Below, one piece after another: positions 26,633 to 50,520 of a DNA stretch of 64,000 nucleotides. Each line of letters begins with the position of its first letter. Positions within the stretch are counted from its first letter, which is position 1. The stretch is from Clostridia bacterium (GTDB lineage Bacteria; Bacillota; Clostridia; Christensenellales; Borkfalkiaceae), in the NCBI GenBank assembly GCA_021203845.1, contig JAJQAK010000185.1, positions 1,731 through 65,730 on the forward strand, given 5' to 3'. The notes below the pieces were generated by a model. The model saw only the letters and a list, made by a program, of their open reading frames with translations, was not told the DNA's origin and searched no databases. Position numbers and translations under genes: made by a program.

Positions 26633-26656
26633 ATCGCGCCCGTCCTCCTTGATGTT

Positions 26657-26926
26657 CTAATCTACCTTCATCCCATACGCATCCTTAATGAACGCCTTTA
26701 TGCCCGCCATCGTCATCGGATATTTGTTTTCACAATTATGCCCGTTTTCATAGTCCGCTATTGCGGTGCCGACATTTACCACGTTGCCACCATAATGTGT
26801 GGACGAATTGTGACCGTAGTCACTATGTGTGTCCGTCCAAATCTTGCCGGTGTCCTTATTAAGGTACATAATCCCATAGTCCGGTGAATAGGCTCCACCG
26901 CTGTTTGCGGACTTAAATTCGCCCAC
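26657..26926 (-). CDS. Small hypothetical protein, H/G/N/Y-rich
   Basis: 89-aa ORF with a GTG start and a weak RBS. The start is uncertain. Confidence 0.35.
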   Translation of the reverse strand: MGEFKSANSGGAYSPDYGIMYLNKDTGKIWTDTHSDYGHNSSTHYGGNVVNVGTAIADYENGHNCENKYPMTMAGIKAFIKDAYGMKVD

Positions 26927-26933
26927 CGCTTTT

Positions 26934-31572: not shown

Positions 31573-32795
31573 TCTTCATACCTCGCTTTTTTCATGGTTT
31601 TATAATCTCTGGAATCCTTTATGGTATTGTACCTTACCGGGCACACAATCGCATCGCCGTCATCACCTTTAATGTATATGGGGTTTAACGGATTCCCTGA
31701 CAAATAAATTTTAGGATTTTTAAGCTGACTCGCCGTGTTGTATAAAAGCCTTGCGTCCATTGCGACATTACCCGCGCTCATCGCATTGCTGCCGTAAATT
31801 GAGTTTACCTCGTGCGGAAGATTCTTGTAGTCCGTCAGAACTATTTTGTAGTCCTCTTTGCTCGCGCGTTTCCCTGTCTCCTCTTTTACGACCGCCCCTA
31901 TGCCTTTCATAAACTTGGTCAAATCCTGCATAGAAAACTCTTTAAGTTCGTCCGTACAGGCCTCTCTCGTTTCGTCTATGAGATTGCACACCTTCTCCGC
32001 GACTTGAGATTTGTCCTCCGCCGGGTTCGCAATCACCGGCTTGTCATAGCGTATGCCCATGAATTTGTTGCTGAACACCTGTTTACCATCCGACGCATCA
32101 TACACTTTGGGGGCTTCATTGCTTATTCTCGCAAGTTTCTCCATCGCTGCGACGCGTTTTTTGTCGCCGTCAGATATGGGTTTCAGTGCATTGGGATTTT
32201 CGGGTTTCTGCGGAGCCGCCTCCTCACCCCTCGGTACATCCTTTATATCGGTTTTCTTTGCCTCGCCCGTCATCGGCATTATGAAGCCTTCACCGTCCGC
32301 TCCCCTGACTCCCAAAACGGCAACCCTTTTTGTTGCGTCTGTCATCGGGAAAAACTCGGCATCGGGGAAGATTTGTAAAGCGTTTCGTAGATATTTCGGG
32401 TCAACGCTTATTTCCTTGTCGCCGAACAAAAAACTTATGACATTCTTTTGGAATTTGCCTTCCTTTTTAATACCGTACTCTTTCTCGTACGGCGTCGGTT
32501 TGAGTTTCTTTTTCTGCTCGGCTTCGTCTTTTTTTGCCTTATCCATGAAATAACCGAGCTCCTGTGGCGTTATGCCGGCTTTCACGGCGTCGCCCCGATT
32601 GTAGTTGTCCAGCATATCCTCAATCAAGTCCATGAGGTGAAGGATCCTGTTGTCTTCTCCGACTTCATCGGTTATCGCGTTGTTGAACCTGAACGCTATG
32701 TCGCCATTCGTATAATATTGCCGCCCCTTACCGTCTTGTACTACCGGTTTTTCTGGCCATTTCTTCTCATCATTGAGTGCGTTTATGAGCTTCAT
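31569..32795 (-). CDS. Untagged protein with two tandem clamp-like domains (cargo half of a split gene?)
   Basis: 408-aa ORF whose ATG overlaps the stop of the module-only ORF as ATGA. Two internal repeats each end in ...D.(K/R).L.(N).....(P)....(I/V).(G..G.G)(F/A)I(M/V).P(M/V). Confidence 0.7.
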   Translation of the reverse strand: MKLINALNDEKKWPEKPVVQDGKGRQYYTNGDIAFRFNNAITDEVGEDNRILHLMDLIEDMLDNYNRGDAVKAGITPQELGYFMDKAKKDEAEQKKKLKPTPYEKEYGIKKEGKFQKNVISFLFGDKEISVDPKYLRNALQIFPDAEFFPMTDATKRVAVLGVRGADGEGFIMPMTGEAKKTDIKDVPRGEEAAPQKPENPNALKPISDGDKKRVAAMEKLARISNEAPKVYDASDGKQVFSNKFMGIRYDKPVIANPAEDKSQVAEKVCNLIDETREACTDELKEFSMQDLTKFMKGIGAVVKEETGKRASKEDYKIVLTDYKNLPHEVNSIYGSNAMSAGNVAMDARLLYNTASQLKNPKIYLSGNPLNPIYIKGDDGDAIVCPVRYNTIKDSRDYKTMKKARYEE

Positions 32796-33133
32796 TCTCC
32801 GAGCATTGAGCTTTTCCGTACTCGGAGCCTTTTTCGTCGCGGGTTTTTTTCGGTCATTTTCGCGTTGTTGCTCGCCTTGACTTCGCTCGCATACGGCTTT
32901 ATCGTGCCCTCTTTTTGGAGTGACGAATACGCGGCTTTCGGGTCAACCCCTTTGCCCTGTAAAGCCTTCCAGCAGTCCGTCGGCGAGAACCCCGTCGTGT
33001 CGATACCGAACTCCTCACAGAGCCCATATGGCAGGCGGGTATTGCCGTGAGAGCCTTTGCCTCGTCCTTCCTCATCCTCGTCCGCATCTAAATTGAGTAT
33101 GCGGGCCATCATTCTTCCTCTTGCATTTGTCAT
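32792..33133 (-). CDS. Stand-alone copy of the shared N-terminal module
   Basis: 113-aa ORF, MMARILNLDADEDEEGRGKGSHGNTRLPYGLCEEFGIDTTGFSPTDCWKALQGKGV..., followed by a short basic tail. Confidence 0.65.
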   Translation of the reverse strand: MTNARGRMMARILNLDADEDEEGRGKGSHGNTRLPYGLCEEFGIDTTGFSPTDCWKALQGKGVDPKAAYSSLQKEGTIKPYASEVKASNNAKMTEKNPRRKRLRVRKSSMLGE

Positions 33134-33136
33134 AAC

Positions 33137-35137
33137 TTACCTCAGTTTGTTGTAATCAAGTGGTGCCTGTTCTACCACCTCCAAGTCGATAAACCATTTG
33201 CCGTTCGTGTCCTTCTTGCATTTCGTTATCTTGAAATACGTGTCTCTTTGGAGCAACATTTCGTTCTCGTCGTGTATGTCGGCCGCCGTGAAATCTCCGC
33301 CTCTGTAATTGTGGTGCGTGGCATATGCGTTTGGGGCTATGTACGCGGCTTTCGTGCCTTTCGGACAGTAAATGTTCAATATAACGTTCCGATTGAACCC
33401 CGTGTCTTTGGAGGCCCCGCACGAGCAAAAGCCCGGCATATGCAGAACCTTGCCTTCCTTTATCATGTTCTGTATCTCGTCCATTGAGAGCTTTTCGACC
33501 CCCAGCGTCCGCTCGAAACCGCGGTCGGTCACGCCCCTCTTGAGCCACGTGTCGTTTTCCAGCGAGCTTTTCGCTATCAACTTTGTGAGCGTGTCTATGC
33601 TTTTTCTCAACTTTTTGTCATCGTAAATGGCGTCGTTGTTGCCTATGCCCTTGTAGCTGATTGCCATCATGTCTTTGTCATCGTATCCCGACAATGCCGC
33701 GGTCGCCCAGTATGAGGTTTTAGCATAATCCCCCACGGCCCTCAATTCGTTGTTTGTGGCATTGCTAAACAGCTTGTCCGCCATTCCTTTGAACTTTTCT
33801 ACGGACTCCGCTTTTGATTTACACCATATCGCGTTGTCCTTTCGCTCTTTTGTGAACGCCGAGTTGTCGAATTTGACGTGTTGTCCTCTTATGCAGTTTG
33901 ATTTGTTGGCTTTCGGGTTGTCGTACTTCCCGGCTGCCTTGTCTGCATTGGTCAATCTGCTCTTTAACGCACTTTTATATAAATAACTCAACGACGGCGA
34001 TGAGCTCAGTTGCCTGAGCCCACTCCACAGTTGTGCCTTGTATAACTCCGTCGAGTTTAGAAGTTTTCCGCCGTTTTTGATGTCGTCGCATTTTTCCTTG
34101 AGTTTTTCCCTTATCTCCTTAAGTCCTTCATTTCGTTCTTCAGCCGTGAGTGTTTTATTTTCCATCACGGCGGCTATTCCGTCAACCACCTTATTCATTG
34201 CCTCGGCGTATTTCATAATGCCGTCCGCGATTTCGTTCTCATAGTCCATGTGCTTTTGGCAGTATGTGTTCTCACTTAAATCGTCAAGCCCCTTCGCCTG
34301 TTTTGCCTCGTCGATTTGCAGTTTGTTTAAATCAAACGCCGAGAACCCTTCCGCTCCGGCGTATTGAGCCGCCATTTTGTCATGTTCATCGCTTATCTTC
34401 GCAAGTCCGCCGTAAATGTCTATTTTTGAGTCGGGATGCCGTGCGTTAAAATCGTCAAGCCGTTGCTGAAATTTGGGGGACGTCGCCGATGCCATCAATT
34501 CCCCATAATCTACCATTTTGCTGTGAAAGCCCCACAAATGCTCCGGCACGGTCTCTTGAAGCTTTTTATACGGCTTAAGTATGTTCACGTTGTATGACTG
34601 AATGAAATTTGCGTCGTCCCATAAATCGGTCAGTATTTTTTTGTTGGCGAGAAGCCTCTCCCTTTCCTTCGTATTGGTCGTGTAACCGAGTTGTTGGTTT
34701 ACCGAACTCATGGCAAGGGAGATGCTTTGACGGTCTAATTCTTGAGGCACTGCGGTGAACGGGTTTTTGTTTATGCTTTCCGCTATGGCTTTACACTTGT
34801 CGTATATGTCTTTCACACCCTTCGCCATTTTAGGCTCCTTGGGTTTGTTTTTTTTCTCCTCGACCTGTTTTCCTTCCTTCTCCTCAACGTACTTGTCTAT
34901 CGTACCGTCCTTTTCGAGAGCCGCGTATGCTTCATCGGCGTCTACCCCTTTGCCTTGCAAGGCGTCCCAAGCCTGTTTGGGCGTTGCACCTTTCGGGAGC
35001 TTGATGCCGAACGCCATACACAACCCGTACGGAAGTCTCGTGTTCCCGTGCGAACCTCCTCCGCCTCGCTCGTCCTCATCGTCCTCGGCATCCGTATGAA
35101 GATACCGCTGTATCATGTTTAACCTCGAAACATTCAT
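33137..35137 (-). CDS. Module-tagged ADP-ribosyltransferase (R / S-x-S-like / E-x-E type)
   Basis: 666-aa ORF. The N-terminus is MIQRYLHTDAEDDEDE...HGNTRLPYGLCMAFGIKLPKGATPKQAWDALQGKGV. The C-terminus has WLKRGV (about 33535-33555), GFCSCGAS (about 33410-33437) and ENEMLLQR (about 33244-33272). Confidence 0.75.
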   Translation of the reverse strand: MNVSRLNMIQRYLHTDAEDDEDERGGGGSHGNTRLPYGLCMAFGIKLPKGATPKQAWDALQGKGVDADEAYAALEKDGTIDKYVEEKEGKQVEEKKNKPKEPKMAKGVKDIYDKCKAIAESINKNPFTAVPQELDRQSISLAMSSVNQQLGYTTNTKERERLLANKKILTDLWDDANFIQSYNVNILKPYKKLQETVPEHLWGFHSKMVDYGELMASATSPKFQQRLDDFNARHPDSKIDIYGGLAKISDEHDKMAAQYAGAEGFSAFDLNKLQIDEAKQAKGLDDLSENTYCQKHMDYENEIADGIMKYAEAMNKVVDGIAAVMENKTLTAEERNEGLKEIREKLKEKCDDIKNGGKLLNSTELYKAQLWSGLRQLSSSPSLSYLYKSALKSRLTNADKAAGKYDNPKANKSNCIRGQHVKFDNSAFTKERKDNAIWCKSKAESVEKFKGMADKLFSNATNNELRAVGDYAKTSYWATAALSGYDDKDMMAISYKGIGNNDAIYDDKKLRKSIDTLTKLIAKSSLENDTWLKRGVTDRGFERTLGVEKLSMDEIQNMIKEGKVLHMPGFCSCGASKDTGFNRNVILNIYCPKGTKAAYIAPNAYATHHNYRGGDFTAADIHDENEMLLQRDTYFKITKCKKDTNGKWFIDLEVVEQAPLDYNKLR

Positions 35138-35147
35138 GTCTCACTCC

Positions 35148-37127
35148 TTACAGTTTGGAATAGTCGAGCGGAGCCTGTTCAACCACGGCAAGCGTTATGT
35201 GTATTTCGCCATAATCATCCCGCCTTATTTTCAGTGGCTTGAACCCCGTGCCTCTTTGTAAAATGAGCTCATCCTCAAATGTCGTATTGCTGAAAAAATT
35301 GCTGTCCCTTAATGATTCTTCTAATTTCTCATCCGATACCCCAAACGCGCTTAACCCCGACACATATAATGCGTTCATGCCTTTCGGACAGAATATGTCG
35401 AGTTTTATGTTGGAGTCCTTTGCCGTGCCCTCGGATGCTCCACATGAACAAAACGACGGCTGATACACGGTCTTGCCGCTGTTCACGGCTCTTTTCAGTG
35501 TCTCGTATGATGTGTTTTCTACCCCGAATAGTGCTGTTATTCCGGAGCCACAGACACCTCTTTCAACCCACACGTCTCTGTCCAGTTCGCTCTTGCCTAT
35601 TATCTCGGTCAATGCGTCTATCGCCTTTCCCTTGCCGTATGCGTCCATGTTTACGTTTCCCACGCCTCTAAAGTCCGACTTCTCCCAGCAGTAACCATTG
35701 GGGAAAAACGATTCATACCCACACAATGGAAGATTGAAGCCGTCTGAACCGCCCGTATAATCTATCGCCGATTCTATTTGCTCTGTGGTCGCATTTGCGA
35801 GCGCCTTTTTTGTGGCTTTCTCGAACACGCCCCTTGACATATATGGGTCATAACAGACAGTGGCTCTGTCCAGCCTGTCCTCGGTAAATGACTTTGCATT
35901 GAATTCCTTATACATTCCCTCAATGCAATTCTTCTTTGTTGCGTTTGGATTGTTGAACTTGCCCGATGCAATTTCCGAGTACGATGCGTCCTCCATTTTT
36001 TGGCAAAGTTCCCAGTCGGGGCGACATCTTTCTGCCATTTCGTTAATTCCGCAACGCATTGCGTCTTTATAAACCGATGGCCCCTCTCCCTTCAGCAATC
36101 TTCTGCAAAGTGTTTCATGTAACTCAAGATATGCCTGTCTTTGAGCTTCTTTATCGCCCTTTTGCGGTATCGCTTTAATTTGGGCGGCGATTTTGTCCAT
36201 ACTGCTTACATATCTCTCGGCACTTTTGATTATGTTTTCCATAAGTTTGGGATGTTTCTTGCCGTATCTTGAGTTCCGAAGTTTCTCCTCGGCCGCCACA
36301 AGTTTCTTCCTGTCACATTTAAGCCCATTTACATCATACGCTCCAAACACCTTTTTTGCGTCCGTTTCCATAAAGTCATAATACTCGGCTTTGTCTCTTA
36401 TCTTTTTGAGCTCTCCCCTAACTTTCTTGCCGAGTTCCGGATATTTTTCATCAATTTGTTTTAAATATCCTTTGAATTGTTTGTCATTAACATCGTCAGA
36501 CAAAAGATGGCGAATCATATGCGCCCTACCCTCAAGTTCGAGGCCAGACTCCATTTCTAAAAAACTGGCATATTTGCGCCCTATGTCGGCATATTTGTTA
36601 CAGAAATCACTCATCCCCTCGAACTTGCAGGCGGACAGCACTTTGTTTTCTTTCTCCTTGAGCCACTTTTTTTCATCCGCGCTCCTCGTGTCTTCACTCA
36701 AGCGTTTTCGTATGTTGTCCAAGCTGTTTTCCGTGCGATAGAATGACGGCACGAACTCCTTATCTACTCCCAAATTGTCAATATCTCTTTCGAGTATTCT
36801 GTTAAATACTTTACCTATGTAATCTATGTTGTCGTTTATGTCGTCCGCAAAATACTTTCTGCCGTATTTTGCGTCCGCGGCGTTCTCCTCGTTCCAATCC
36901 TCACCCTTTATCATCGCAACATAGTCATCTATCGTGCCATCCTCTCCGAGCGCCTCGTATGCCTTACTGAACCTCACCCCCGCCTGCCTCAATTCCCACC
37001 ACGCATCTCGCGGTGTGGCATCGGGTGGCAATTCAATACCGAACTCTTTACACAGTCCGAATGGTAACTTATTATTCCCATCCAAACGCAATAATCTTTG
37101 TATCATTGCCGCCCTTGCGTAGTTCAT
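35148..37127 (-). CDS. Module-tagged ADP-ribosyltransferase whose module lacks the acidic run
   Basis: 659-aa ORF. The N-terminus is MIQRLLRLDGNNKLPFGLCKEFGIELPPDATPRDAWWELRQAGV. The C-terminus has VWVERGV, PSFCSCGAS and EDELILQR. Confidence 0.75.
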   Translation of the reverse strand: MNYARAAMIQRLLRLDGNNKLPFGLCKEFGIELPPDATPRDAWWELRQAGVRFSKAYEALGEDGTIDDYVAMIKGEDWNEENAADAKYGRKYFADDINDNIDYIGKVFNRILERDIDNLGVDKEFVPSFYRTENSLDNIRKRLSEDTRSADEKKWLKEKENKVLSACKFEGMSDFCNKYADIGRKYASFLEMESGLELEGRAHMIRHLLSDDVNDKQFKGYLKQIDEKYPELGKKVRGELKKIRDKAEYYDFMETDAKKVFGAYDVNGLKCDRKKLVAAEEKLRNSRYGKKHPKLMENIIKSAERYVSSMDKIAAQIKAIPQKGDKEAQRQAYLELHETLCRRLLKGEGPSVYKDAMRCGINEMAERCRPDWELCQKMEDASYSEIASGKFNNPNATKKNCIEGMYKEFNAKSFTEDRLDRATVCYDPYMSRGVFEKATKKALANATTEQIESAIDYTGGSDGFNLPLCGYESFFPNGYCWEKSDFRGVGNVNMDAYGKGKAIDALTEIIGKSELDRDVWVERGVCGSGITALFGVENTSYETLKRAVNSGKTVYQPSFCSCGASEGTAKDSNIKLDIFCPKGMNALYVSGLSAFGVSDEKLEESLRDSNFFSNTTFEDELILQRGTGFKPLKIRRDDYGEIHITLAVVEQAPLDYSKL

Positions 37128-38045: not shown

Positions 38046-41000
38046 TTAAGAGCTTTTCTTTTTTGTTTTCTTTTGTAGCTTTCCGGGGTAATCCACTTTG
38101 TCGTAGTCGAGCGGGTACTGCCCCACAACGGCGAGGTCAAGATACACTTTCCCATGCTCCCCCTCCGTGCATTTGAGAAGTTTGAACTCCGTGTTTCTTT
38201 GGAGCAGAAGTTCGTTCTCGCTGCCCACGTCGTAAAAATTCTCGCCCTTGTAATTGTTCTTGCCGCCGTAATAGCTTGCCGGGGCAATATATGCGCCCTT
38301 CGTGCCTTTCGGAGCATAAATGTTGAGTATGAACTTCTTGTCCGTGAATCCCGCGTTTTTGGATGCCGAACATGAGCAAAAACTCGGCTGCATGAACGTT
38401 TCGCTGCTCCCCACTTTCGCCTTGAGCGCGTCAAACGAAAACTCGTCAAGCCCGAACATATCGCAGATACAGCCCCTACTCGTGCCTCTTTGAAGCCACA
38501 TATCTTCAGGAATCTCGTTGTTGTTTAAAAACTCTGTCAAGTCCTTTACAGTCTTGTCTATTTTGTTCTTGGACATATCGACGTTGCCTATGCCGACGTA
38601 ATTGTCCTTCTTCCAGCCGTCCCGATACCCCGCGAGCGTCCTGTTGTAGTTTCCGCTACCTTTTGTGTACTCCCATACCGACGTGCGTTGCGGCCCCGTG
38701 GCATTGGCGAACGTCTCACGCGCCCACGGCTTGAGTTTCTGTACGGACGATGCTCTAGTTTGACACCATAAGGCGTTGTCCATTCTCTCTTGCGTGAACG
38801 CATCCTTTTCAAACGTGGTTGACATCCCCGGCATGACGTTTTCGGCACTCACGCCTTTTGCGTTGTACTTACCGTTGTGTATGTCGGAGTATGTGATAGT
38901 GTTTGCGAGTGAATCCACCAAATCACCCCACGTGCCGGCGCAAAAACCGCTTATCTTGTATAGCCCCGATACCATATAGTCCTTATATCCGATGCCTACA
39001 TTCGGGTTTGCGTAATTGTTATTGTCTTGTCTGTCCCTTGCCGCGACATTCAGTTTTACGCTTAAGTCTCTTAACTCGCCGATTTTCTGCGGAGCGGTTT
39101 TGTTGGCATCCGACGTTATCCGGTTTATTTCATCGGCGACTTTCTGCATATTGTCGATATATTCATCGACTTCCTCCCATTTCTTCTCGACGTATTTGGG
39201 ATGGGATTTGCCGTATGTGGAGTTCTCGATTTCTTCCATGACGTTCCCCGTCGCCACGTGGTTGGGCATGAGTTTATCCACATCGAACGCGGAATTGAAC
39301 AGGTCTTTTGCAAAATCGCTTTCCGCCTCTATCTCATTGTACATTTCGGCGGCATCCTCCCGCATTTTGTCATATGCCGCTTTTAGTCCCGGGATGTCGG
39401 AATGTTCTTCTATTGTCTTTTTGAAGTCCTCTCCGCAGATTTGATTGTAATAATAGGACGCGGCGGACATCGCAGTGGCTACGCGCCGAGAATCTTTGCA
39501 GTAGAGTTTCAGCTGCTCATAATCACTTATCTTTTTGTCGATTTCTTTCCAAACAGTCGCCATTTCACGCTCTTTGGCATATTCCGTCACAAGTTGCTTA
39601 TAATATTCTTTCAGCTCGGAGTCATATGTGTCTTTTGCATATTCCGAAATCATCCAGCCGCTATCGAACGATGGGTATTTGAAAGGGTCTAATCTTTGGG
39701 TAAATCCGTTTTCCTTTATAAGCTCCGCGTTCTCATCGTTTACCGTTTTGGTGCGGTCTATGAGGTCTTTGGCGAACACAACACCCTCCACGTCCTTGAA
39801 CTTTTCAGCGGGCTCGGTCTTTTCGGGCTCTTTGGACGCTTTCTTTGTTTCGGGATGTTCTTCGTTCACCTTCTCTACTATGCCCTTCGTGTTTCCGGTC
39901 TTTTCAAGCTCCGTGTACACGTCCGTGGGCTTAATCCCTTTCCCCCTCAAAGCATCCCATGCGTCTCTCGGCGCGGCTCCTTCGGGCAAATCTATGCTGA
40001 ACTCCTTGCAAAGTCCGAACGGCAGTCTCGTGTTGCCGTGGTATTTGTGGTGCGTATCCCTCGGCTCGTCCTCATCGTCCTCTGCGTCCGTGTGGTAGCT
40101 TCCCTGTTTCCAGTTTGTGTACAGCCTCACCGCGTCACCGAACGGATTAAACAGCAAGTCATGCATTTCCTCTAACTCGTCGAGTGTGTAATACTTGGGT
40201 TTCGTGAGCTCGCTTGTGTTTCTCGTCGTGGGTGTGCCCTCAAACTCCGTGCATATGAATATGTCGGGACGAAGCTCCGTTTCTTTGTCGGTCTTGCCTC
40301 TGCCTATTCTCACCATGACCTTCGGAATTATGGAGAACTCCTCTTGAGTTTCACGAATTGCGGCATCGAGACTGTTCTCGCCTTCTTCCAAATGACCGCC
40401 GGGGCCACATAATGTGCCTATGCCGTTGCCCTCCTCTCTCATGGCCGTGAGCACCTTGCCGTTATGGAGAACTATTACCCCGCACGAGGGTTTCTCGTAG
40501 TCTATTTCGTGTGTGTATGCATCGCCGGTCGTGGGTTTGCGATATTCAAGCTCCAGCTCCTCTTTGTAATCGCGCTTTATTTCGTCAAGCGCCTTCTCGG
40601 CATCGGTTTTTTCGGGGAACTCGAACGATTTGGCGTTCTTTTGTCTGTACGCCTCTTTGATTTCCGACAGTCGTATCTCCGCGGCATAATTGGGGTCATT
40701 CACAGACGAGTATTTCGGCGTGTCAACGGGCGCGTCCATAGGTATGTCGATGGGGGTGTAATCGGGGGTGTAAACGTCCCCTTCGTCCGTCTCGCTCTCT
40801 TTGTTTGCCTTACCGTATTCTGCCTTTATTTTTTCGAGTTCTTCACCGACGGAGTGGGGCTCGGCCTGAACGGACGTATCTTGTCCGGCTCTGTTTGTAA
40901 GACCTTCGGAATCGGGGTTATCAATAACAATTTTTTCGGAGAAATCAGATGACATGGGTGATTCCTCGGCCTGTCCTTCATTTTTCGTCTGTGCCCGCCC

Positions 41001-42908
41001 CTCAAGACCGAACCCTTCCGCGGTGTTTTTGTCTTTATATTCTTCTTTTATGTTGTTTAGAGCATATTGCGCCTTGAGACCGCCGAGAACGCTCTCTGCA
41101 GTGTTTTCTTCGCTCCCTTGATATTCTGCTCGTGTTTCGTTACGGGCCTCTCTGTCGCTTTCTGTGGGCTCTGACGACCTCACAAGCGGATTGTTCTTTT
41201 CATTCTCAACTCCCAGCTCCGTGGATGTAGGATTGCTGTTGGGTATGTCCTGTTTTGCCGGCTCGCCTATCTGCATACCCTTGGAGTTTTCCTCTTTCGC
41301 CTCCTCCTTCTCCTCATCGTCGGGGGTAGCCGACTGCGGTTCATTGGAAGCCTCTTGTCCTCCGTCGGGAGTCTGCCCTTGCCCTCCTCCGAGCATGGCC
41401 ATCATTTGAGACATCGGGTCGTCCCCTCCGCCTTGCTGTTGCGGCATATTGGCCATGAGCTCATCTTCCGGTATGTCGTCAAGCATGGTATCTATGTCGA
41501 AGTCATCCTCTTTCGCGAGCGCCTTTCTGACCTCTGTGGGGTCCAAAACTCCGAGCTGTATGTATTGGCTCGCCGTGCTTGCTTTCGTAGCCTGCGTGCT
41601 TGCTTTCGTGGCGTCGAGTTGTGCCTGTTCCGTTTCACTCAAGCTCCAAAGCGACTCGAACGCTATTTCTATTTTCGGCACTTCGTCTATTTTTTTCGTG
41701 TTGACGCCCGCCTGAAATATAAGTCTCAAAAGATAACCTATGTTGTTGCGAAGATTTCCCTCCTGCATACCGGCTATTTTGTTGTAGTAGTTTTCGAGGT
41801 CTGACTGACCCGTGGCGTTTTGTCCTGCGGGCGAGCGTCCGAAAAGTATGGTCTGCGGTATGCCGGTGGCCGCCGACAACATATTGCAAGTCGTGTTGAT
41901 TATGTCCGATACGCCCGTGTACGTGAACTGAAGATTTGAGTAGTCTTCGCCGTCCGCGTCCAAAAGCATGGTGTTCAAAAGCCCCTTGGCTTGGTCTATT
42001 GCGTCGAGTCTTTTAAGGACGTCCTCCTCACCGTGCTCTCTTGAAAGTTGCTCTTGCATCCCTTTCATTTTGTATATCGGTTGTACGGACTTCTCCAAAA
42101 ATCGGGGGCCGTCGTCGTGAGCCACCTGCACATTGCGAAGCTCTCTTTTTATGCGTAAATATTCCGGCATCCCCCACATCTCATATGTGAAGTTTGAGCA
42201 TTTTTCGGGCAGTCTACCGCCTTTAAAAAGTAAAACTCTTGACTCGTGTACCCAAAAACATCCGTACTTGCTCGCCACGTAGTACCTTTCGGGCTGTCCG
42301 AGCCTTGAGCCGCGCATTTTGAACGGGTCATGCCCGCTGTATGAAAACATGGTCGTTATGTCGGGCACTATGACGGAGCGGTCGTAAACCCTCATTTCGT
42401 CCACGGACTCTATGTTGTCCCAATCCACGGGCTCGTCTATGCCTCTCCCGTCGTTTATGAGCATGACAATCATTGAGCCACCGAACAATCTTTGCCACCT
42501 CAACGCGTCGGTTGCCTGTTCCTCAAAACTCAAATTCCGAAGCGACTCTTTGTAGAAGTCTATGAGCTTGTCGTCTTTCACGTCCTTGAGCGTGAAGCCC
42601 TTTCGCATGGCATCTTCAGCAGGCGCATCTATTATTCTCGCAAAAATGGCGTTGCCTTCGTATATGACGGCAAGCTCTCCGTCCATTATCGGGAGTTCTC
42701 TCTCATAATGGTAATGCTCCATCGTGTCTTTGGACGTGCCGTAGTTGTTTATCATGTTTACGTAGCCGTCCGCACGATACTCATCCATTCTGTAATCACC
42801 GGGATTGTAGTTGTATGTCTCGTAAGCGTTTTTGAGTTTTATCCCCGTCTGTTTCTCTACCGCGCGGAGATACCTTTTCATTATCGCTTTCTGTTTTTCC
42901 GAGTCCAC
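38046..42908 (-). CDS. Giant fusion: portal (DUF1073-type) - low-complexity linker - NUDIX hydrolase - shared module - helical region - ADP-ribosyltransferase
   Basis: 1620-codon uninterrupted ORF directly downstream of the large terminase gene. The NUDIX box GHLEEGENSLDAAIRETQEEFSI is at 40329-40397. The module HTDAEDDEDE...HGNTRLPFGLCKEFSIDLPEGAAPRDAWDALRGKGI is at about 39880-40095. ART motifs are MWLQRGT (about 38480-38505), PSFCSCSAS (about 38360-38390) and ENELLLQR (about 38197-38222). Confidence 0.75.
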   Translation of the reverse strand: MDSEKQKAIMKRYLRAVEKQTGIKLKNAYETYNYNPGDYRMDEYRADGYVNMINNYGTSKDTMEHYHYERELPIMDGELAVIYEGNAIFARIIDAPAEDAMRKGFTLKDVKDDKLIDFYKESLRNLSFEEQATDALRWQRLFGGSMIVMLINDGRGIDEPVDWDNIESVDEMRVYDRSVIVPDITTMFSYSGHDPFKMRGSRLGQPERYYVASKYGCFWVHESRVLLFKGGRLPEKCSNFTYEMWGMPEYLRIKRELRNVQVAHDDGPRFLEKSVQPIYKMKGMQEQLSREHGEEDVLKRLDAIDQAKGLLNTMLLDADGEDYSNLQFTYTGVSDIINTTCNMLSAATGIPQTILFGRSPAGQNATGQSDLENYYNKIAGMQEGNLRNNIGYLLRLIFQAGVNTKKIDEVPKIEIAFESLWSLSETEQAQLDATKASTQATKASTASQYIQLGVLDPTEVRKALAKEDDFDIDTMLDDIPEDELMANMPQQQGGGDDPMSQMMAMLGGGQGQTPDGGQEASNEPQSATPDDEEKEEAKEENSKGMQIGEPAKQDIPNSNPTSTELGVENEKNNPLVRSSEPTESDREARNETRAEYQGSEENTAESVLGGLKAQYALNNIKEEYKDKNTAEGFGLEGRAQTKNEGQAEESPMSSDFSEKIVIDNPDSEGLTNRAGQDTSVQAEPHSVGEELEKIKAEYGKANKESETDEGDVYTPDYTPIDIPMDAPVDTPKYSSVNDPNYAAEIRLSEIKEAYRQKNAKSFEFPEKTDAEKALDEIKRDYKEELELEYRKPTTGDAYTHEIDYEKPSCGVIVLHNGKVLTAMREEGNGIGTLCGPGGHLEEGENSLDAAIRETQEEFSIIPKVMVRIGRGKTDKETELRPDIFICTEFEGTPTTRNTSELTKPKYYTLDELEEMHDLLFNPFGDAVRLYTNWKQGSYHTDAEDDEDEPRDTHHKYHGNTRLPFGLCKEFSIDLPEGAAPRDAWDALRGKGIKPTDVYTELEKTGNTKGIVEKVNEEHPETKKASKEPEKTEPAEKFKDVEGVVFAKDLIDRTKTVNDENAELIKENGFTQRLDPFKYPSFDSGWMISEYAKDTYDSELKEYYKQLVTEYAKEREMATVWKEIDKKISDYEQLKLYCKDSRRVATAMSAASYYYNQICGEDFKKTIEEHSDIPGLKAAYDKMREDAAEMYNEIEAESDFAKDLFNSAFDVDKLMPNHVATGNVMEEIENSTYGKSHPKYVEKKWEEVDEYIDNMQKVADEINRITSDANKTAPQKIGELRDLSVKLNVAARDRQDNNNYANPNVGIGYKDYMVSGLYKISGFCAGTWGDLVDSLANTITYSDIHNGKYNAKGVSAENVMPGMSTTFEKDAFTQERMDNALWCQTRASSVQKLKPWARETFANATGPQRTSVWEYTKGSGNYNRTLAGYRDGWKKDNYVGIGNVDMSKNKIDKTVKDLTEFLNNNEIPEDMWLQRGTSRGCICDMFGLDEFSFDALKAKVGSSETFMQPSFCSCSASKNAGFTDKKFILNIYAPKGTKGAYIAPASYYGGKNNYKGENFYDVGSENELLLQRNTEFKLLKCTEGEHGKVYLDLAVVGQYPLDYDKVDYPGKLQKKTKKKSS

Positions 42909-42920
42909 CTTGCTCCCTCC

Positions 42921-44336
42921 TTATATCAACCCTTTCAGGCTGAACTGGTTTACTATCTCCAGTTCCGAAAACGCGTTTGCCGACGCGTCCACCATGTCCT
43001 TGAACTTGTAATCGGGAAAATTCTCCATCTGCATTAAATAACTCTCGTTCCAGCCCGCCGTGACGAGGCTGACGTTCCCCGCCTGCCATTGAGCGGCGAG
43101 CGGTTCCGCCCTCAACTCTTTTGAGCCGGTTTCTCTTTCCGCCCTTACGTCAAATCCGGCCAAGAACTTCACAAAGCTCTCCGCCTGTGCTTTGCCCGCC
43201 TGTCCGGGGTCTTGTGGAAGCCTTACTCTTACCCGTCCGTATTTTTGTCTGTCCAGCTCCGCCGTCTGTTTTATGAGACTCCTCACGTCCCCCGCGCCGA
43301 GCTGTTTGTTTATGACGTCGGCAATGACGTATCTTCCGTCTCTGCGTTTGCCCATGAGAACTCCGGCCGTATAGCACGGGTCGCCGCTCGCCGTCTTTTC
43401 GGTTGCGGCCAAATCCCAGCAGCGCACCCATCTGTCAACGTCTTTCGGGGCGAACGGCAGAAAACCGTCTTTTTCGGGAAGTTGCTCCCTTCTGAAATAC
43501 AGTCCCGCGGACGGCTTTATTTTCCAGTTGCCCATCAAAAGTCTTTCACGCTCTATCACGGACAATGCCTTGAGGTTCGCCATATACTGCGGATTGATTC
43601 TCATAAGCTCCGTGTTGTCGGTGAGCCTTGACATTATGAAGGTGACCGAGCGGGGCTCTTGTCTCTCCTCCTCGGTCTTTAACTCGAACCGCTCCCACAA
43701 TTCTTCGGGAGTGTCGGCCCATATTATTTCTTCGTCCCTTCTGACAAACCAGCGCAGTTTCCCACTTTTTTCGGGCACCGGATAGCCCTCGTCGTTAAGC
43801 CACCAGTCTATGAACTTTGCCACCCAGCTGTTTGCGTCGGGGTTGCACGTGGCTCTCACGAACGGCTTTACTCCGCAAGTCGAACGGTTACGGGACAACA
43901 TATAGAAAAACGTCTTTTCCGAAAAATGCGTGAGTTCATCGAAGCCTATGAAACATATCTGCGAGCCCTGCCATTTGGCGACGTCCTCATCTCGCTCTAT
44001 GTGTGCGAATGTGAGCCTTGACATCACCTCGCCGTTATATGAAAACGACCACTGACTCCTTGTGAGACTCGCATCGCTCCCCCGTATGCCTCTGTACATC
44101 TTGTCGGCTTCTTCCCAAAGCCCGCCCGGTGAAAAAATTTGGTTGTAGTTGTGTCTGAATATCGCGCCGCTGAAGTCTTTTACGTCCTTGTACCTTAACG
44201 GACATAAGAGAAGCCCGTATGACTTCCCCCCACCCGCCGCGCCGCCGTATATACAAATGTCGGCCCTCGTGGACAAGAACCTTTCCTGCGGCCCTTTCTG
44301 CGGTTTAAGTATCATTCCCGTCCCTCTTATCCGCAT
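42921..44336 (-). CDS. terL: Terminase large subunit
   Basis: 471-aa ORF. It has the Walker A motif ICIYGGAAGGGKS and a C-terminal nuclease-like region, in the position small terminase, large terminase, portal. Confidence 0.85.
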   Translation of the reverse strand: MRIRGTGMILKPQKGPQERFLSTRADICIYGGAAGGGKSYGLLLCPLRYKDVKDFSGAIFRHNYNQIFSPGGLWEEADKMYRGIRGSDASLTRSQWSFSYNGEVMSRLTFAHIERDEDVAKWQGSQICFIGFDELTHFSEKTFFYMLSRNRSTCGVKPFVRATCNPDANSWVAKFIDWWLNDEGYPVPEKSGKLRWFVRRDEEIIWADTPEELWERFELKTEEERQEPRSVTFIMSRLTDNTELMRINPQYMANLKALSVIERERLLMGNWKIKPSAGLYFRREQLPEKDGFLPFAPKDVDRWVRCWDLAATEKTASGDPCYTAGVLMGKRRDGRYVIADVINKQLGAGDVRSLIKQTAELDRQKYGRVRVRLPQDPGQAGKAQAESFVKFLAGFDVRAERETGSKELRAEPLAAQWQAGNVSLVTAGWNESYLMQMENFPDYKFKDMVDASANAFSELEIVNQFSLKGLI

Positions 44337-46630: not shown

Positions 46631-48184
46631 TTATTGCTTCCATTCCTCGCTGCCCCATTCAACGGGAATGTCTTCGCCTTTTGCGTTTTTTGAACTCAAC
46701 ACTTTCGCGGGACGCCCGTTGTTGTCGATTCTCACGCAACTGTCGAAGCCCTGTCCGTTTGACATCTCGTCCCATACTTTTCTGCAGCCACCGTCTATCT
46801 CTCTCGTAATGTAACGGAGTGACAAAATACGTCCGGTCTTTACCGCTCTCGTCATCATTCTTCTTGCCGCGTTTGTGTTCTTGACGTCGTTGTATACAAG
46901 ATTAACCTCGTAACCCTGTTTCTTCAACGCCGCGAGATACTTCTTTATTTTCTTGGGGTTTGAGCCGACTATCGGGATTGCGACGTTCGCGCCGTCCATT
47001 GAACCGTCAAAGAACTTTGGCAACAGTTCTTGGTTGAGAATATCCGAGCTTTCCTCGTGAACTTTCCCCGCGCCTTTGCCGTTGTCAAATTCGGGCATCA
47101 TGCTTTTAACCACATCGCTGTCCATGACCATCGCGCCGTAATATTGTGATATTCTGTTCACGGCGACGGATGACTTGCCCGCGGCAGGCGGCCCCATGAT
47201 TAGGAATGCTTTCTTTTCTTTCTTTACCTCTCCAGTGTACTGCTCATCCCCGTTCTCATCTATCACGACACTGCCCGAATGAAGCATTTTCTCGACTATC
47301 GGCTTATGCACGCTGTCGATTCTGTCTTGGTTGTATACAACATTTCCGTTCTCGTCCCTTTCGGGAACGGTTTTGCCGTTGTCATCCTTCATTTTCCCTG
47401 TAAATTTCCACTGTGTTTGGTCTTTTTCGGGAGTTTGGTTGAGTTTCATAAGTTTCTTCACCATCGGGTTTTTTGCGAGCTCACTTATCGGGTACGTCGG
47501 GAACTCCATGAGGTCTTTGTATAGCCCCCTCGCTCTCTCCAATGCCACAGGCGGCTGGTAGTAATTTATACTGTTCACGGACAGTCCCGAAATTTTGGAA
47601 ATCTGTTCGGGCGACATTTTGCGCTTTTTCGCCATGTAGTCCAATAGCCGCGACAGGTTTCTTTGGTCGGCGAACGGTCTTTCCTCCTCATCCAGTTTTT
47701 CAGGATTGACCATTTTAAGTATCTTGCTTTTCGAACCGAACTCCTTTTCGGCATATGTCCTTAACTTGTCGTAAGCCGATTTGCATATATGGGCATCTAT
47801 CATACCTTTCCGCCTATGAGCCGCCTCGCTAAACTGTTCGGGGGGAGTATACGGTTTTTCTCGCTCTCTGCGGTCGCGTCCCGAACCTCCGGTAATCCCC
47901 TTGTCTCTCATTTCTTGAACATACGAGTCTATCGTGCCGTTCTTTTGCAACTCCGCAAACGCGGCCTTGGGCGTTATGCCCTTTCCGGCGAGAGCCTCCC
48001 AACAATCCGTCGGGGAAAACCCTTCGGTGTCTATGCCGAACTCCTCGCATAGACCGTACGGCAAGCGGGTGTTCCCTCCGCCTCCGCTTTGTTTCTTGGA
48101 GGTCTCCTCAGTATCGTCATCCGCATCCATATGCATTATTCTACGTATCATGCGGTCTCTTGCACTTATAAAATTCTTCCCCAT
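46631..48184 (-). CDS. Module-tagged zeta-toxin-like P-loop kinase
   Basis: 517-aa ORF. The N-terminus is MIRRIMHMDADDDTEE...GGNTRLPYGLCEEFGIDTEGFSPTDCWEALAGKGI. The C-terminus has the Walker A motif FLIMGPPAAGKSSV (about 47174-47210) and downstream zeta-like blocks (DSD..., GYEVNLVY). Confidence 0.7.
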   Translation of the reverse strand: MGKNFISARDRMIRRIMHMDADDDTEETSKKQSGGGGNTRLPYGLCEEFGIDTEGFSPTDCWEALAGKGITPKAAFAELQKNGTIDSYVQEMRDKGITGGSGRDRREREKPYTPPEQFSEAAHRRKGMIDAHICKSAYDKLRTYAEKEFGSKSKILKMVNPEKLDEEERPFADQRNLSRLLDYMAKKRKMSPEQISKISGLSVNSINYYQPPVALERARGLYKDLMEFPTYPISELAKNPMVKKLMKLNQTPEKDQTQWKFTGKMKDDNGKTVPERDENGNVVYNQDRIDSVHKPIVEKMLHSGSVVIDENGDEQYTGEVKKEKKAFLIMGPPAAGKSSVAVNRISQYYGAMVMDSDVVKSMMPEFDNGKGAGKVHEESSDILNQELLPKFFDGSMDGANVAIPIVGSNPKKIKKYLAALKKQGYEVNLVYNDVKNTNAARRMMTRAVKTGRILSLRYITREIDGGCRKVWDEMSNGQGFDSCVRIDNNGRPAKVLSSKNAKGEDIPVEWGSEEWKQ

Positions 48185-48197
48185 ACTTAAAACTCCT

Positions 48198-49925
48198 TTA
48201 GTCGTCCATGATTATCTTTGTCACGGCATCCATGTATTCCTCTATGTAATCGGGAAGCTGCTCACCCATGTAGTACATCGTAAAACACTCGGCAAACATC
48301 TCGCACGGCTTGCCGTCCTCATATGCGTATACGGATATTTTGCCCTTGTCACCATGTTTCGAGACCAAATCCCATAGTTTTTTCTCAACGAACTTCCCCG
48401 ATGTAAAAATGACATCTCCGGATTTTAATTTCGTTGCTTCTAGAGTCTGCTTGCTTTTTAACACATCGTCCACGGCGTCTCTCAACATATGTCCCAGCTC
48501 GTGAACCACGAGCGACTCCATTTCCCTGCCCTCTATGAACACATTGTGCCGGCGGCTAGGGTCGGTGTAGGCCTCTCTTGCTTTTTCCAAGTTTGCTTTG
48601 TCTTGTTTTTTTGCAGCGATGTCATTCTCAATTTGCGTTATCGCCTCTTTGTTGCCATCCGTTTTTGCGGTTTTCAAAGACAGCTCCATCTCTGCTATTG
48701 TCTCCTCGGCCTTGCTTATCATTTTGTCATATGTTTTTCTGTATGTTTTTATGGCGGGCAATCGGTTTGTGTTCAAAAAATCCATTTCGTGCCGGCCAAC
48801 TTGCCACCACGCGAGTTTTCCCGTTTTAAACCGATTGCTCGCTCCTATCTTTGCGGGTTTGACGCCATAACTTTCGTATATCGACATCAATGCATTGTTT
48901 ATTTGGTTGCACTGCTCGGCCGTGAACTGCTTTGTGGCATACGCATCCTTGCCGGCTGATTTGCCATGTGCGTCATTGTACATATCTATTCCGAGATTGT
49001 CCTTCGCCCATTTCGCGGCCTCGGCCGGAGTCTTGCACTCACTTACTTTTCGGACGCCCCGCTTGCCCCAGTTCGGGTTTTTCTTCAGCTCGGCCCTTGC
49101 TTCCTGTTTCTTTTTCTCTTGCTCTTTCCTTCTTTGCTCGGCCTCCTCTTGAGCTTTGCGTTTTTTTTCTTTGTTTTCCTCTAGCTGTTTGTCTATCTCT
49201 TCTTGCGGCATGACAATCTTATCGAGCATTTCCTCGCACCATGCCTTCACTTCGTCATCCTCACAGGTTTCCATAGCCTCTTTCGTTCGGCCTATATAGT
49301 CCTTCATGTACGATTTGTGGTTCCCCACTTCCGTAAACCCATGAGCAAGGGCGCTTTTGATATTTCTCGTTTCTCTCTCAACTTCCATTACCGCCGCCAC
49401 GGCTCTGTAATTGTCACAAATTGCTCGATAAACATCACTAACCCCATCGTCGTTTTCGTGTTTTCTGTATATCTCGTAGCTCTCACTTGGATAATTCGGC
49501 GGGTTTCCGGTCAGCCATTCCTTGCCGTTTTTTTCGTTGTCTCGTATTGCCTCGAACCACTCTCTCGTGGCTTTTCTCCTTCCCTTGAATGACTCCCTTT
49601 CTTGGTCATTTAGGTTTAAAGAATCTATCGGGTCTTTCTTTACGGTTTTACTCCCTTTCGGCTTGTACCCCTCTATCGTGCCGTGCTCGTTCAAATATTG
49701 ATAGGCCTCTTTCGGACTCACGTCCTCGCCCTTGAGGGCTTTCCAACAGTCCTTCGGAGTAAAACCCGTGGTATCTATGCCATACTCTTTACATAAACCG
49801 TACGGGAGTCGCGTGTTGCCATGTGAGTGTATTCCTCTCTCATTTCGCTCGTCATCGTCATCGGCGTCCAGCCGCAATATTCTGTTTATCATGTCGTGTC
49901 GTGCGTCGTTTGCCGTGCCGCTCAT
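48198..49925 (-). CDS. Module-tagged HExxH zinc metallopeptidase
   Basis: The track ORF starts at the TTG at 49940, inside the RBS. The ATG at 49925 (MSGTANDARHDMINRILRLDADDDDE...HGNTRLPYGLCKEYGIDTTGFTPKDCWKALKGEDV) is preferred. It also has LVVHELGHML (about 48482-48513) and EMFAECF. Confidence 0.75.
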   Translation of the reverse strand: MSGTANDARHDMINRILRLDADDDDERNERGIHSHGNTRLPYGLCKEYGIDTTGFTPKDCWKALKGEDVSPKEAYQYLNEHGTIEGYKPKGSKTVKKDPIDSLNLNDQERESFKGRRKATREWFEAIRDNEKNGKEWLTGNPPNYPSESYEIYRKHENDDGVSDVYRAICDNYRAVAAVMEVERETRNIKSALAHGFTEVGNHKSYMKDYIGRTKEAMETCEDDEVKAWCEEMLDKIVMPQEEIDKQLEENKEKKRKAQEEAEQRRKEQEKKKQEARAELKKNPNWGKRGVRKVSECKTPAEAAKWAKDNLGIDMYNDAHGKSAGKDAYATKQFTAEQCNQINNALMSIYESYGVKPAKIGASNRFKTGKLAWWQVGRHEMDFLNTNRLPAIKTYRKTYDKMISKAEETIAEMELSLKTAKTDGNKEAITQIENDIAAKKQDKANLEKAREAYTDPSRRHNVFIEGREMESLVVHELGHMLRDAVDDVLKSKQTLEATKLKSGDVIFTSGKFVEKKLWDLVSKHGDKGKISVYAYEDGKPCEMFAECFTMYYMGEQLPDYIEEYMDAVTKIIMDD

Positions 49926-49937
49926 GGCTTCACCTCG

Positions 49938-49967
49938 CAAAAGAAAAGGGCTTGCCCTCGCAAACCC
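49938..49967 (-). terminator. Intrinsic terminator GGGUUUGC-GAGG-GCAAGCCC-UUUUCUUUUG
   Basis: An 8-bp stem (49967-49960 and 49955-49948, one G-U pair) starts right after the stop of 49968..50258. Its U-tract overlaps the RBS of the next gene. Confidence 0.65.
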
Positions 49968-50258
49968 TCAATATTCCAAATGGTCGTATCGCTTCATTAT
50001 TATCTCACTCGCCAACTTGGAGACCTCCATTACCTCATCGTGTAATTCCTTGGGAAAGCCCTCACCTTTGGGATGTTCTTCCAGTGCCGCATTGATGATG
50101 TCAACAAGGTCACTGTTTGCCCGTTTTAAAACCTTATCCAAATAGTCGCATATCTTGTCGGACATAAACTCTTTTTCTTCTTCTTGCCGCCTCCGGAGGT
50201 CTTTGAGCCTCTTAAGCCGCTTGTCATACACCGCTTGCAATTTCCCAGCGTCTACCAT
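49968..50258 (-). CDS. Small helical hypothetical protein
   Basis: 96-aa ORF. The RBS GGAGG lies 7 nt upstream of the ATG. Confidence 0.6.
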   Translation of the reverse strand: MVDAGKLQAVYDKRLKRLKDLRRRQEEEKEFMSDKICDYLDKVLKRANSDLVDIINAALEEHPKGEGFPKELHDEVMEVSKLASEIIMKRYDHLEY

Positions 50259-50352
50259 ATTGCGCCTCCGATTAACTATTTAACACGTATAGGTGAAATC
50301 TGCCACATTCTTCAGCCGTTCCCATATCGCGCACCTCAAGACTTTTTACGTT

Positions 50353-50520
50353 TTAATAAATCGGCTCGTTCTTTAAATACTCCTTTTCGAGTTCAAACAA
50401 TTCATCGTACTGCTTTTCGGCATCCTCATCCGTTTCTCCGACGCCCTTCACGTCAAGCTCTATCATGCTCTCCGGTAGTCCGAGCTTTTTCAACTTGCTT
50501 CTAAATTCATCCTTCGTCAT
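50353..50520 (-). CDS. Small acidic ORF (55 aa), below the track cutoff
   Basis: ATG at 50520 is preceded by GGAGGTGATAAAGA. The product is MTKDEFRSKLKKLGLPESMIELDVKGVGETDEDAEKQYDELFELEKEYLKNEPIY. It fills an otherwise empty 248-nt gap. Confidence 0.45.
   Translation of the reverse strand: MTKDEFRSKLKKLGLPESMIELDVKGVGETDEDAEKQYDELFELEKEYLKNEPIY

Follow-up and report, generated by a model that had tools for sequence, protein, structure and literature searches.

Why does a phage portal protein end in two enzyme domains, and what does the segment between them do? The question is raised by one open reading frame (ORF) on the minus strand of a 64,000-nt stretch of contig JAJQAK010000185.1 (assembly GCA_021203845.1, positions 1,731 to 65,730; hereafter the window) from a Clostridia bacterium of the Borkfalkiaceae. 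The initial annotation had read this ORF as a portal fused to a NUDIX hydrolase, to a module shared with other ORFs and to an ADP-ribosyltransferase (ART). Our analysis showed that 38046..42908 is a genuine phage portal gene and that the fusion is real. The explanation that we favor, and hold to be fairly likely, is an arsenal of effectors carried inside the capsid, to which the portal fusion would contribute 12 copies loaded in cis and free proteins tagged with the same module further cargo, with subsequent release by proteolysis and injection.

Architecture and integrity of the portal fusion

The ORF divides into the following parts, with the supporting evidence in brackets; the two free ART genes related to its C-terminus are given last.

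38046..42908, minus strand: whole ORF, 1620 amino acids (aa) plus stop, with a GTG start and a GGAGGGA ribosome-binding site (RBS)
41472..42908, minus strand: portal domain, aa 1–479 (PF06381, phrog_15528, solved portals)
40494..41471, minus strand: acidic low-complexity tether, aa 480–805, 326 aa (composition)
40134..40493, minus strand: NUDIX hydrolase domain, aa 806–925 (PF00293, MTH1 in the PDB)
40329-40397, minus strand: Nudix box GHLEEGENSLDAAIRETQEEFSI, aa 838–860 (motif search)
39831..40133, minus strand: leader/junction module, aa 926–1026 (module hidden Markov model (HMM), BLASTP)
40065-40094, minus strand: acidic patch HTDAEDDEDE of the portal-fused module (sequence)
40008-40037, minus strand: GNTRLPFGLC of the portal-fused module, followed by the small helical core (sequence)
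38814..39830, minus strand: all-helical spacer, aa 1027–1365 (BLASTP, AlphaFold2 (AF2))
38049..38813, minus strand: C3/VIP2-like R-S-E ART, aa 1366–1620 (PF03496, AF2, Foldseek)
38484-38501, minus strand: ART Arg motif MWLQRG, R1474 (motif search)
38361-38381, minus strand: ART Ser motif FCSCSAS, S1512 (motif search)
38202-38219, minus strand: ART E-x-E motif ENELLL, E1564/E1566 (motif search)
33137..35137, minus strand: free ART paralogue with leader helix, module, helical spacer and ART (BLASTP, profiles)
35148..37127, minus strand: free ART paralogue with the same four parts (BLASTP, profiles)

Across 38046..42908 the minus strand is free of stop codons for 1620 codons (4.86 kb). At ~50% G+C, this unbroken frame together with the E-values of the encoded domains lies far beyond chance. 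The GTG start (42908) follows a strong GGAGGGA Shine-Dalgarno sequence by 5 nt and the terL stop codon by 12 nt, and homology stays in one reading frame through every junction, so that the single stop-free ORF of the initial annotation stands. That an overlooked stop or frameshift, introduced by assembly or sequencing, had merged separate genes might be suspected from the fact that the exact 1620-aa protein is known from one contig only (73.7 kb; NCBI nr holds the identical protein with the identical start as ‘MAG: DUF1073 domain-containing protein [Clostridia bacterium]’). Yet the two junctions flagged earlier as possible breaks recur in independent assemblies, the portal-to-linker junction being near-identical in homologue P0002 and the NUDIX-to-module junction being reproduced in P0026 and P0138, as is the module-to-ART junction in P0002. 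Nor is the module preceded by an internal start with a well-spaced RBS: the ATG at aa ~917 is unconvincing, as its GAGGAA lies directly adjacent. With both flagged junctions reproduced independently, such an artefact is very unlikely indeed.

Residues ~1–480 had been assigned to a DUF1073-type portal encoded directly after terL, which our searches bear out. PF06381 (Phage_portal_3) matches aa 80–438 (E 1.4e-76, 258 bits vs. a cut-off of 33.8), the PHROG portal family phrog_15528 matches the ORF at 3.4e-158, and solved dodecameric portals, among them those of Pam3 and E217 (gp19), match the region at 2e-25 to 2e-8 (9jlf at 2e-25, as well as 9l01, 8hds, 7kln and 8fvh). The NCBIfam equivalog TIGR01555 (HI1409 family) scored 186.3, slightly under its cut-off of 196.25, which is stricter than that of Pfam. 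In known solved portals, the C-terminus is directed into the capsid lumen. By this topology, the C-terminal enzymes would be built into the head lumen, with 12 copies of each per virion near the inner mouth of the DNA channel. The portal domain is followed by a low-complexity linker, as had been claimed, although it proved mainly acidic (E 16%, D 8%, net charge −43) rather than rich in G, Q, P and N; it contains four short repeats of the form L.[EK]IK.[ED]Y at aa 617, 691, 747 and 774.

The Nudix box was found exactly where the initial annotation had placed it, in a domain that PF00293 matches above its cut-off (aa 808–914, E 1.2e-11, 45.2 bits vs. 21.1). Compared with GX5EX7REUXEEXGU, GHLEEGENSLDAAIRETQEEFSI keeps E, RE and EE intact and differs only by a G to S exchange at the penultimate position. 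The best PDB matches are MTH1/MutT-like (MTH1 at 2e-8), with ADPRases matching more weakly (1e-4 to 1e-3), and every NCBIfam equivalog for a NUDIX subfamily scored far below its cut-off. The notion of two NAD/ADP-ribose-related enzymes is therefore only half supported, namely by the ART.

For the ART, all three previously noted motifs are present and intact, and PF03496 (ADPrib_exo_Tox) matches aa 1399–1584 above its cut-off (E 1.6e-13, 50.9 bits vs. 23.4). An AF2 model of aa 1027–1620, with a predicted local distance difference test (pLDDT) score >90 over most of the ART domain, has a C3-like fold and superposes on C3 exoenzymes, Certhrax, VIP2 and CDTa (Foldseek E ~1e-11, target-normalized template-modeling (TM) scores of 0.77–0.82; C3bot1 at E 2.5e-11 and TM 0.77). 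An alignment of 17 sequences showed no variation at S1512 and E1566, conservation of at least 90% at E1564 and of less than 90% at R1474, which is His in P0002. The domain matches phrog_16625 (‘Bxa’), and its best PDB sequence match is a Listeria ART from an ART-ARH toxin-immunity pair. Judged by this C3/VIP2/Bxa-like character, it probably ADP-ribosylates proteins.

The shared module and the junctions of related phages

The module emerged from an all-against-all BLASTP of the minus-strand ORFs of the window as a segment of ~85–100 aa common to the N-termini of 12 other ORFs and to aa 926–1026 of the portal fusion. An HMM built from these copies detected exactly 13 in the window, 12 of them N-terminal and one internal; the latter begins ...SYHTDAEDDEDE and matches at 1.9e-39. 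The module thus follows the NUDIX domain and lies where the other members have their N-terminus, just as had been described. Its parts are, in order, an Arg-rich helix (ARxRMIxRiL), an acidic patch (lDAdDDEDe), a Gly/His-rich spacer and a core with the consensus GNTRLPYGLCxEFGIDLPEGxSPKDAWxALxGKG...Y..L. AF2 predicted the core as three to four short helices (pLDDT ~90) and the upstream part as disordered. The portal-fused copy retains the acidic patch and the core, and ‘AVRLYTNWKQGSY’ stands in place of the Arg-rich helix of the free copies. A Pfam scan of the module alone gave no match up to E=10, and when the tagged proteins were scanned with PHROGs, NCBIfam and Pfam, the module region stayed empty. 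A HeH/SAP-like identity, prompted by two Ish1 matches and the sequence pattern, was dropped as unsupported, since neither these scans nor Foldseek yielded a significant match for the module.

The resemblance of the portal fusion to the tagged proteins extends beyond the module. Its C-terminal ~690 aa (module, spacer and ART) form a full-length paralogue of the two free ART proteins, with BLASTP identities of 33% to 33137..35137 (E 1e-85) and 29% to 35148..37127 (E 1e-72), and the helical spacer is common only to these in-window paralogues. Module copies share 45–65% aa identity vs. 60–76% DNA identity, without long exact repeats; a 31-nt stretch with 90% identity (repeat D7) connects the acidic patch of the portal fusion with 33137..35137. 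The initial proposal that a tagged ART gene was joined to a portal-NUDIX gene is, judged from the sequences, a reasonable evolutionary reading, supported by the free paralogues and by a split arrangement in one relative (locus L004), where the ART has a gene of its own behind the portal-NUDIX gene and carries the same junction motif as the portal of that locus. With DNA identities of just 60–76%, the joining is old rather than recent, and a recent duplication or recombination of module copies was rejected for the same reason. The comparison with relatives, suggested earlier as a check, was two-sided: the parts are fused in many and separate in L004.

An exhaustive profile search with the module HMM over 1.84 billion representative proteins revealed a family of 567 clusters at E<=1e-3 (302 at E<=1e-10), comprising proteins of 100–1400 aa in which the module nearly always lies within the first ~130 residues and is rarely internal. 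Seeing the family required this exhaustive search: word-indexed searching with the module profile gave no more than 31 proteins, all short and unnamed. Source names, where given, read ‘hypothetical protein’ only. Pfam scanning of 82 members identified seven ARTs, one Zeta toxin and one NUDIX domain, leaving most without a Pfam domain and the ART as the commonest recognizable cargo.

Homologues of the portal fusion, sought among 5.8 billion proteins, numbered 1147. Most of the best 120 of the listed clusters combine PF06381, PF00293 and PF03496, in classes of 998 and 1026 aa, and include a Colidextribacter genome record and contigs of 100–420 kb, which are probably prophages. Other clusters consist of portal and NUDIX alone, of portal, NUDIX and phosphoribosyltransferase, or of arrays of 1.4–2.0 thousand aa, in which up to five or more unrelated domains are separated by conserved short motifs. 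The same module is internal to the portal fusions of P0002 and P0026. Elsewhere, the junctions are formed by a GSGN-type element (GGxGSGNWGHxGRPGxxGGS), by a WVT-type element (an acidic patch followed by W[VI]T[VI]NGxH[VI]PL...GG) or, in Faecalibacterium phage FP_Brigit, by HPRDxxGxF. These elements occupy two positions: in free cargo they lie close to the N-terminus, in portal arrays where one domain meets the next. At least one junction motif was present in 113 of the best 120 clusters (WVT in 98, GSGN in 15, the NTRLP module in three). Related phages use the motifs interchangeably at the same positions. P0004, P0005 and P0007 have near-identical backbones that differ by whole motif-bounded cassettes. 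In relatives (L004, 14229-16699; L005, 15930-19523), the ART is followed by a small ORF and then by an ADP-ribosylglycohydrolase (ADP_ribosyl_GH in L004). One of them also encodes a 1197-aa ART polyprotein with three WVT-type junction motifs.

Head genes, tagged cargo and the leader helix

The head and packaging genes around the portal fusion, and the tagged genes among them, are as follows.

16614..17669: major capsid protein (MCP; gene-order survey)
18217..20277, minus strand: head-maturation protease/scaffold, DUF2213 (profiles)
~18244-18276, minus strand: C-terminal tail of the protease/scaffold, resembling the cargo leader helix (position-specific scoring matrix (PSSM))
20367..21302, minus strand: MuF-like head morphogenesis protein, a separate gene without toxin extension (PF04233, 9.4e-21)
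21736-23355, 23352-24278, 24983-26632 and 26934-28508, minus strand: tagged cargo genes 1–4 of seven (module HMM)
28505-29995, 29992-31572 and 32792-33133, minus strand: tagged cargo genes 5–7 of seven (module HMM)
37586-37972 and 37200-37589, minus strand: small paralogous ORFs of 128 and 129 aa, 48% identical, directly downstream of the portal-ART gene
38027->37999, minus strand: sigma-70-like promoter, TG-extended TTGACA-17-TATAAT (perfect match), directly after the stop codon of the portal fusion
42921..44336, minus strand: terminase large subunit, terL, immediately upstream of the portal fusion (Terminase_6N/6C, PHROG)
46631-48184, minus strand: module plus Zeta-toxin/AvrRxo1-like P-loop kinase, upstream of the terminase genes (PF06414, 3e-12)
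48198-49940, minus strand: module-tagged gene upstream of the terminase (module HMM)
50507-51814, minus strand: module-tagged gene whose domain is MuF-fused in other phages (phrog_324)
51933-52898, minus strand: anti-restriction protein homologue adjoining the upstream tagged genes (phrog_7245, 4.8e-56)

The gene order runs from MCP through a cement-like protein, protease/scaffold, MuF, the tagged block (~16 kb, 21736..37127), the two small ORFs and the portal fusion to TerL, and continues with a possible TerS, a ParB-like gene, the three tagged genes at 46631..51814 and the anti-restriction gene. Non-module ORFs, e.g. 31569-32795, are interspersed among the cargo genes of 21736..33133. Five relatives found via portal homologues and 26 IMG/VR loci found via the module were sampled for synteny; where the markers are present, the head genes follow the same arrangement (TerL, portal fusion, MuF, protease, MCP), and in the relatives examined variable cargo genes are interspersed with those for TerL, portal, MuF and protease. 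A link of the tag system with the head interior and the portal vertex fits this context, in which the module occurs both in the portal and in genes of the head block. As in the definition of polyvalent proteins (at least two effector domains, encoded with packaging genes), NUDIX and ART sit on the portal, between terL and the genes for MuF, protease and MCP.

Recognizable tagged cargo comprises, besides the portal fusion, two further ARTs and the Zeta-toxin-like kinase; one more protein has a domain that is MuF-fused elsewhere, and the rest are unannotated. In this protein (50507..51814), aa 124–428 match positions 332–608 of phrog_324 (‘head morphogenesis’), the N-terminal half of which is MuF; the module sits here in the carrier’s place, which MuF fills in MuF toxins.

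A possible role of the leader helix is suggested by its likeness to the protease-scaffold protein. When the leader helices of the 12 free copies were turned into a PSSM and every minus-strand ORF of the window was searched with it, the best match outside the leaders was the extreme C-terminal tail of that protein (18.8 bits vs. a background of −17.1 ± 5.4; next matches 14.6 and 9.9). In related loci, the scaffold tail was the best six-frame match to the same PSSM in nine of ten cases. For scaffolds and prohead proteases, targeting to the procapsid through the C-terminal tail is well established (HK97 gp4, P22 gp8). By resembling a tail of this type, the leader helix may dock cargo onto the coat shell, and such scaffold mimicry is retained as no more than a moderate hypothesis. 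The scaffold protein also contains acidic DADD-like stretches.

Several further observations were made in this region. The 14.6-bit match, the second-best non-leader match in the window, is a second, internal leader-like helix (GRAHMIRHLLS) at aa ~200 of 35148..37127 (minus strand). In the protease/scaffold gene, a Pro/Ala/Gln/Lys-rich stretch followed by a nearly pure Asp/Glu tract of ~150 aa (~18718-19170) lies between the DUF2213 domain and the scaffold-like C-terminus, the tract being much longer than in FP_Brigit and other relatives. Promoter-like sequences recur at 24935-24976, 46577-46618, 21635-21693 and 51828-51886 (repeat families D8 and D10), upstream of small ORFs and cargo genes within the late head gene cluster. 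A second family of small ORFs (94–96 aa) is found among the tagged genes (24621-24908, 24325-24609 and 21330-21620, minus strand).

Known counterparts, proposed delivery and rival explanations

Fusions of this kind turned out to be less unusual than the initial annotation implied. Portal, NUDIX and ART recur together among the homologues, FP_Brigit has a portal-NUDIX protein, and Iyer et al. (2017, J Bacteriol, PMC5512222; 2022, Viruses, PMC9503650) describe Nudix, ART, 2H, PBECR and InPase domains fused to portal or MuF proteins, predicting computationally that such fusions are packaged in the head and injected, or alternatively that they counter immunity aimed at the portal or terminase. Our ORF resembles these portal-fused effectors and polyvalent proteins in having a C-terminal Nudix and ART in a head/packaging gene cluster, and differs from the cases given there in combining NUDIX, module and ART on one portal. 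The searched passages of PMC5512222 and PMC9503650 mention neither the NTRLP module nor junction motifs of the GSGN and WVT types, and for a capsid-targeting leader of the NTRLP-module kind the only precedents found were those of T4, SPN3US and P22. The portal fusion belongs to a widespread, already interpreted class; for the leader/junction module with its 13-member client set we could find no description, nor for the scaffold-tail resemblance or the interchangeable junction motifs in relatives.

Among cultured phages, the nearest relative is FP_Brigit, whose 828-aa portal AUV56649, annotated as ‘portal protein’ only, has the same portal-linker-NUDIX backbone (47% identity in the portal, 35% in the NUDIX domain) and whose protease-scaffold carries the same tail motif. 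In place of module and ART, AUV56649 has a short HPRD-type junction and a small unrelated C-terminal domain, and the module HMM found no copies in the 32-kb head region of FP_Brigit. MuF polymorphic toxins (Jamet 2017, PMC5576092; Bxa with Bsi and BAH, PMC11699363; Apk2; the EFV toxin) use MuF, a proposed capsid-targeting domain, as carrier, Bxa being a MuF-ART toxin (PMC5576092, PMC11699363). They share with our locus a head-morphogenesis carrier, polymorphic C-terminal toxins, commonly R-S-E ARTs, and small adjacent ORFs, which in the MuF toxins are immunity ORFs; unlike there, the part of carrier falls to the portal (in cis) or to the module (in free genes), a Pfam scan of 38046..42908 detecting no MuF domain and MuF being the separate gene 20367..21302. 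The short terminal helices of HK97 gp4 and P22 gp8, which suffice to bring a protein into the procapsid, are a further parallel, in that the cargo leader helix resembles the phage’s own scaffold tail, although it is N-terminal on the cargo and its coat binding is putative. In T4, Alt and other internal proteins are headed by an N-terminal targeting leader, trimmed by gp21 and injected with the DNA, one leader serving several cargos, the ART Alt among them. The T4 capsid-targeting sequence is ~10 aa long and unrelated in sequence, and Alt is not portal-fused, whereas the leader here spans ~100 aa with a folded core.

As to location in the capsid, cleavage, injection and targets, we infer the following course for the favored effector arsenal. 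The phage is a Brigitvirus-like myophage of Clostridia/Oscillospiraceae, the portal C-terminus of which has been extended, in order, by the acidic disordered tether, NUDIX, the ~100-aa junction module, the helical spacer and the C3/VIP2-type ART. On the 12 free proteins, helix and module likely load diverse effector domains into the procapsid; the portal-fused copy may have lost the Arg-rich helix because the portal itself ensures incorporation. Cuts in the tether or at the junctions, made by the maturation protease of the head or autoproteolytically, would set the enzymes free, as suggested by the tether, by the junction motifs and by a maturation protease being encoded at the locus; this cleavage would be needed for any action in the host, since an uncleaved fusion would remain anchored in the capsid. 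By the precedent of T4 Alt, of MuF toxins and of the predictions by Iyer et al., the freed enzymes would exit together with the DNA and be active from the first moments of infection, the ART ADP-ribosylating host proteins and the NUDIX domain hydrolyzing a nucleotide substrate. Only tentatively do we extend this to the possibility that the ~100-aa leader, with its Arg-rich helix, acidic patch and GNTRLPYGLC helical core, is an undescribed transferable tag for capsid loading and ejection within a dedicated cargo-effector delivery system (at least 12 effectors in trans, two in cis), with the GSGN and WVT motifs as alternative versions that double as prohead-protease sites.

Several points weigh against the effector arsenal, beginning with the single contig from which the exact protein is known. 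For the AF2 model of the module, Foldseek found 0 matches in the PDB and nothing below E=3 in BFVD, and the core offers no hint of a protease site or binding function. A comparison of the MCP N-terminus, the protease-scaffold and the junctions yielded no clear shared cleavage motif, and the substrate of the NUDIX domain cannot be assigned from subfamily matches. In the wider family, leaders read YRxRRxxRL while scaffold tails are constant (ARxRMIAK), and covariation of leader helix and scaffold tail, sought over the 26 IMG/VR loci, was not found; the near-identity of the two in the window could therefore be lineage-specific or convergent. Finally, the conservation of the junction motifs would be equally explained if they were joints at which cassettes are shuffled by recombination.

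This last thought leads to the view that module and junction motifs are joints or inert linkers for shuffling cassettes, without a role in capsid targeting or processing. It is what one would expect from whole cassettes swapped at motifs between the near-identical backbones of P0004, P0005 and P0007 and from the D7 stretch; conservation at the protein level, with diverged DNA and no long exact repeats, the compact helical fold predicted for the core and an N-terminal bias over 567 clusters that would be unexpected for a mere joint make it, in our estimation, improbable. We judge similarly unlikely that the enzymes stay tethered to the portal and act in the head or during assembly and packaging, where they would modify phage or packaging proteins or shield the portal and terminase from immunity, the latter being an alternative put forward by Iyer et al. 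The failure to find a cleavage site in MCP, scaffold and junction comparisons speaks for permanent tethering, as does a 326-aa flexible tether that would let the enzymes reach around the portal vertex. However, the same ART cassette in two free tagged genes argues for a function independent of the portal, NAD+ and like substrates would not be expected in a DNA-filled head, and the motif-separated arrays of up to five or more domains in relatives look like polyproteins meant for cutting. Permanent tethering, an inert joint and the artefact discussed above are each less likely.

More serious, though still on the unlikely side, is the explanation that a prophage here encodes a polymorphic toxin with immunity genes, comparable to Bxa and Apk2. 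It shares packaging with the effector arsenal and differs on purpose: the ART and the tagged cargo, mainly as antibacterial or host-directed toxins released with or in virions, would harm non-immune competitors or mammalian cells, and the small adjacent ORFs would neutralize the toxin in the producer. The Bxa and Listeria ART matches and the polymorphic C-terminal cassettes on a conserved backbone are in keeping with this, as are the two small paralogous ORFs with their own consensus promoter after the ART; by position (cf. Bxa and Bsi) these ORFs are, as a conjecture, candidate immunity proteins. The succession of ART, small ORF and ADP_ribosyl_GH in L004 moreover repeats the Bxa-Bsi-BAH layout (PMC11699363). 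But the small ORFs match no Pfam or PHROG family and have no homologues in the five related loci, including beside the ARTs examined there, no ADP-ribosylhydrolase was recognized among the scanned ORFs of the window, and a NUDIX domain would be an atypical toxin. The data are consistent with a toxin-immunity role of the Bxa kind, which in part coincides with the effector arsenal.

Phage proteins that are carried in the head and injected with the DNA are poorly known outside a few models (T4, P1, N4, phiKZ, P22), and this locus bears on the role of the abundant MuF and portal toxins of gut phages, including ARTs such as Bxa. The locus amounts to an unusually clear natural experiment, in which one leader occurs on 12 free proteins and once within the portal, its helix kept on the free proteins and lost in cis, and in which related phages carry other junction motifs at the same positions. 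If the proposed delivery holds true, the module would provide a sequence rule for spotting injected effectors in metagenomic phages of Clostridia and Oscillospiraceae, as well as a handle for engineering protein delivery by gut phages.

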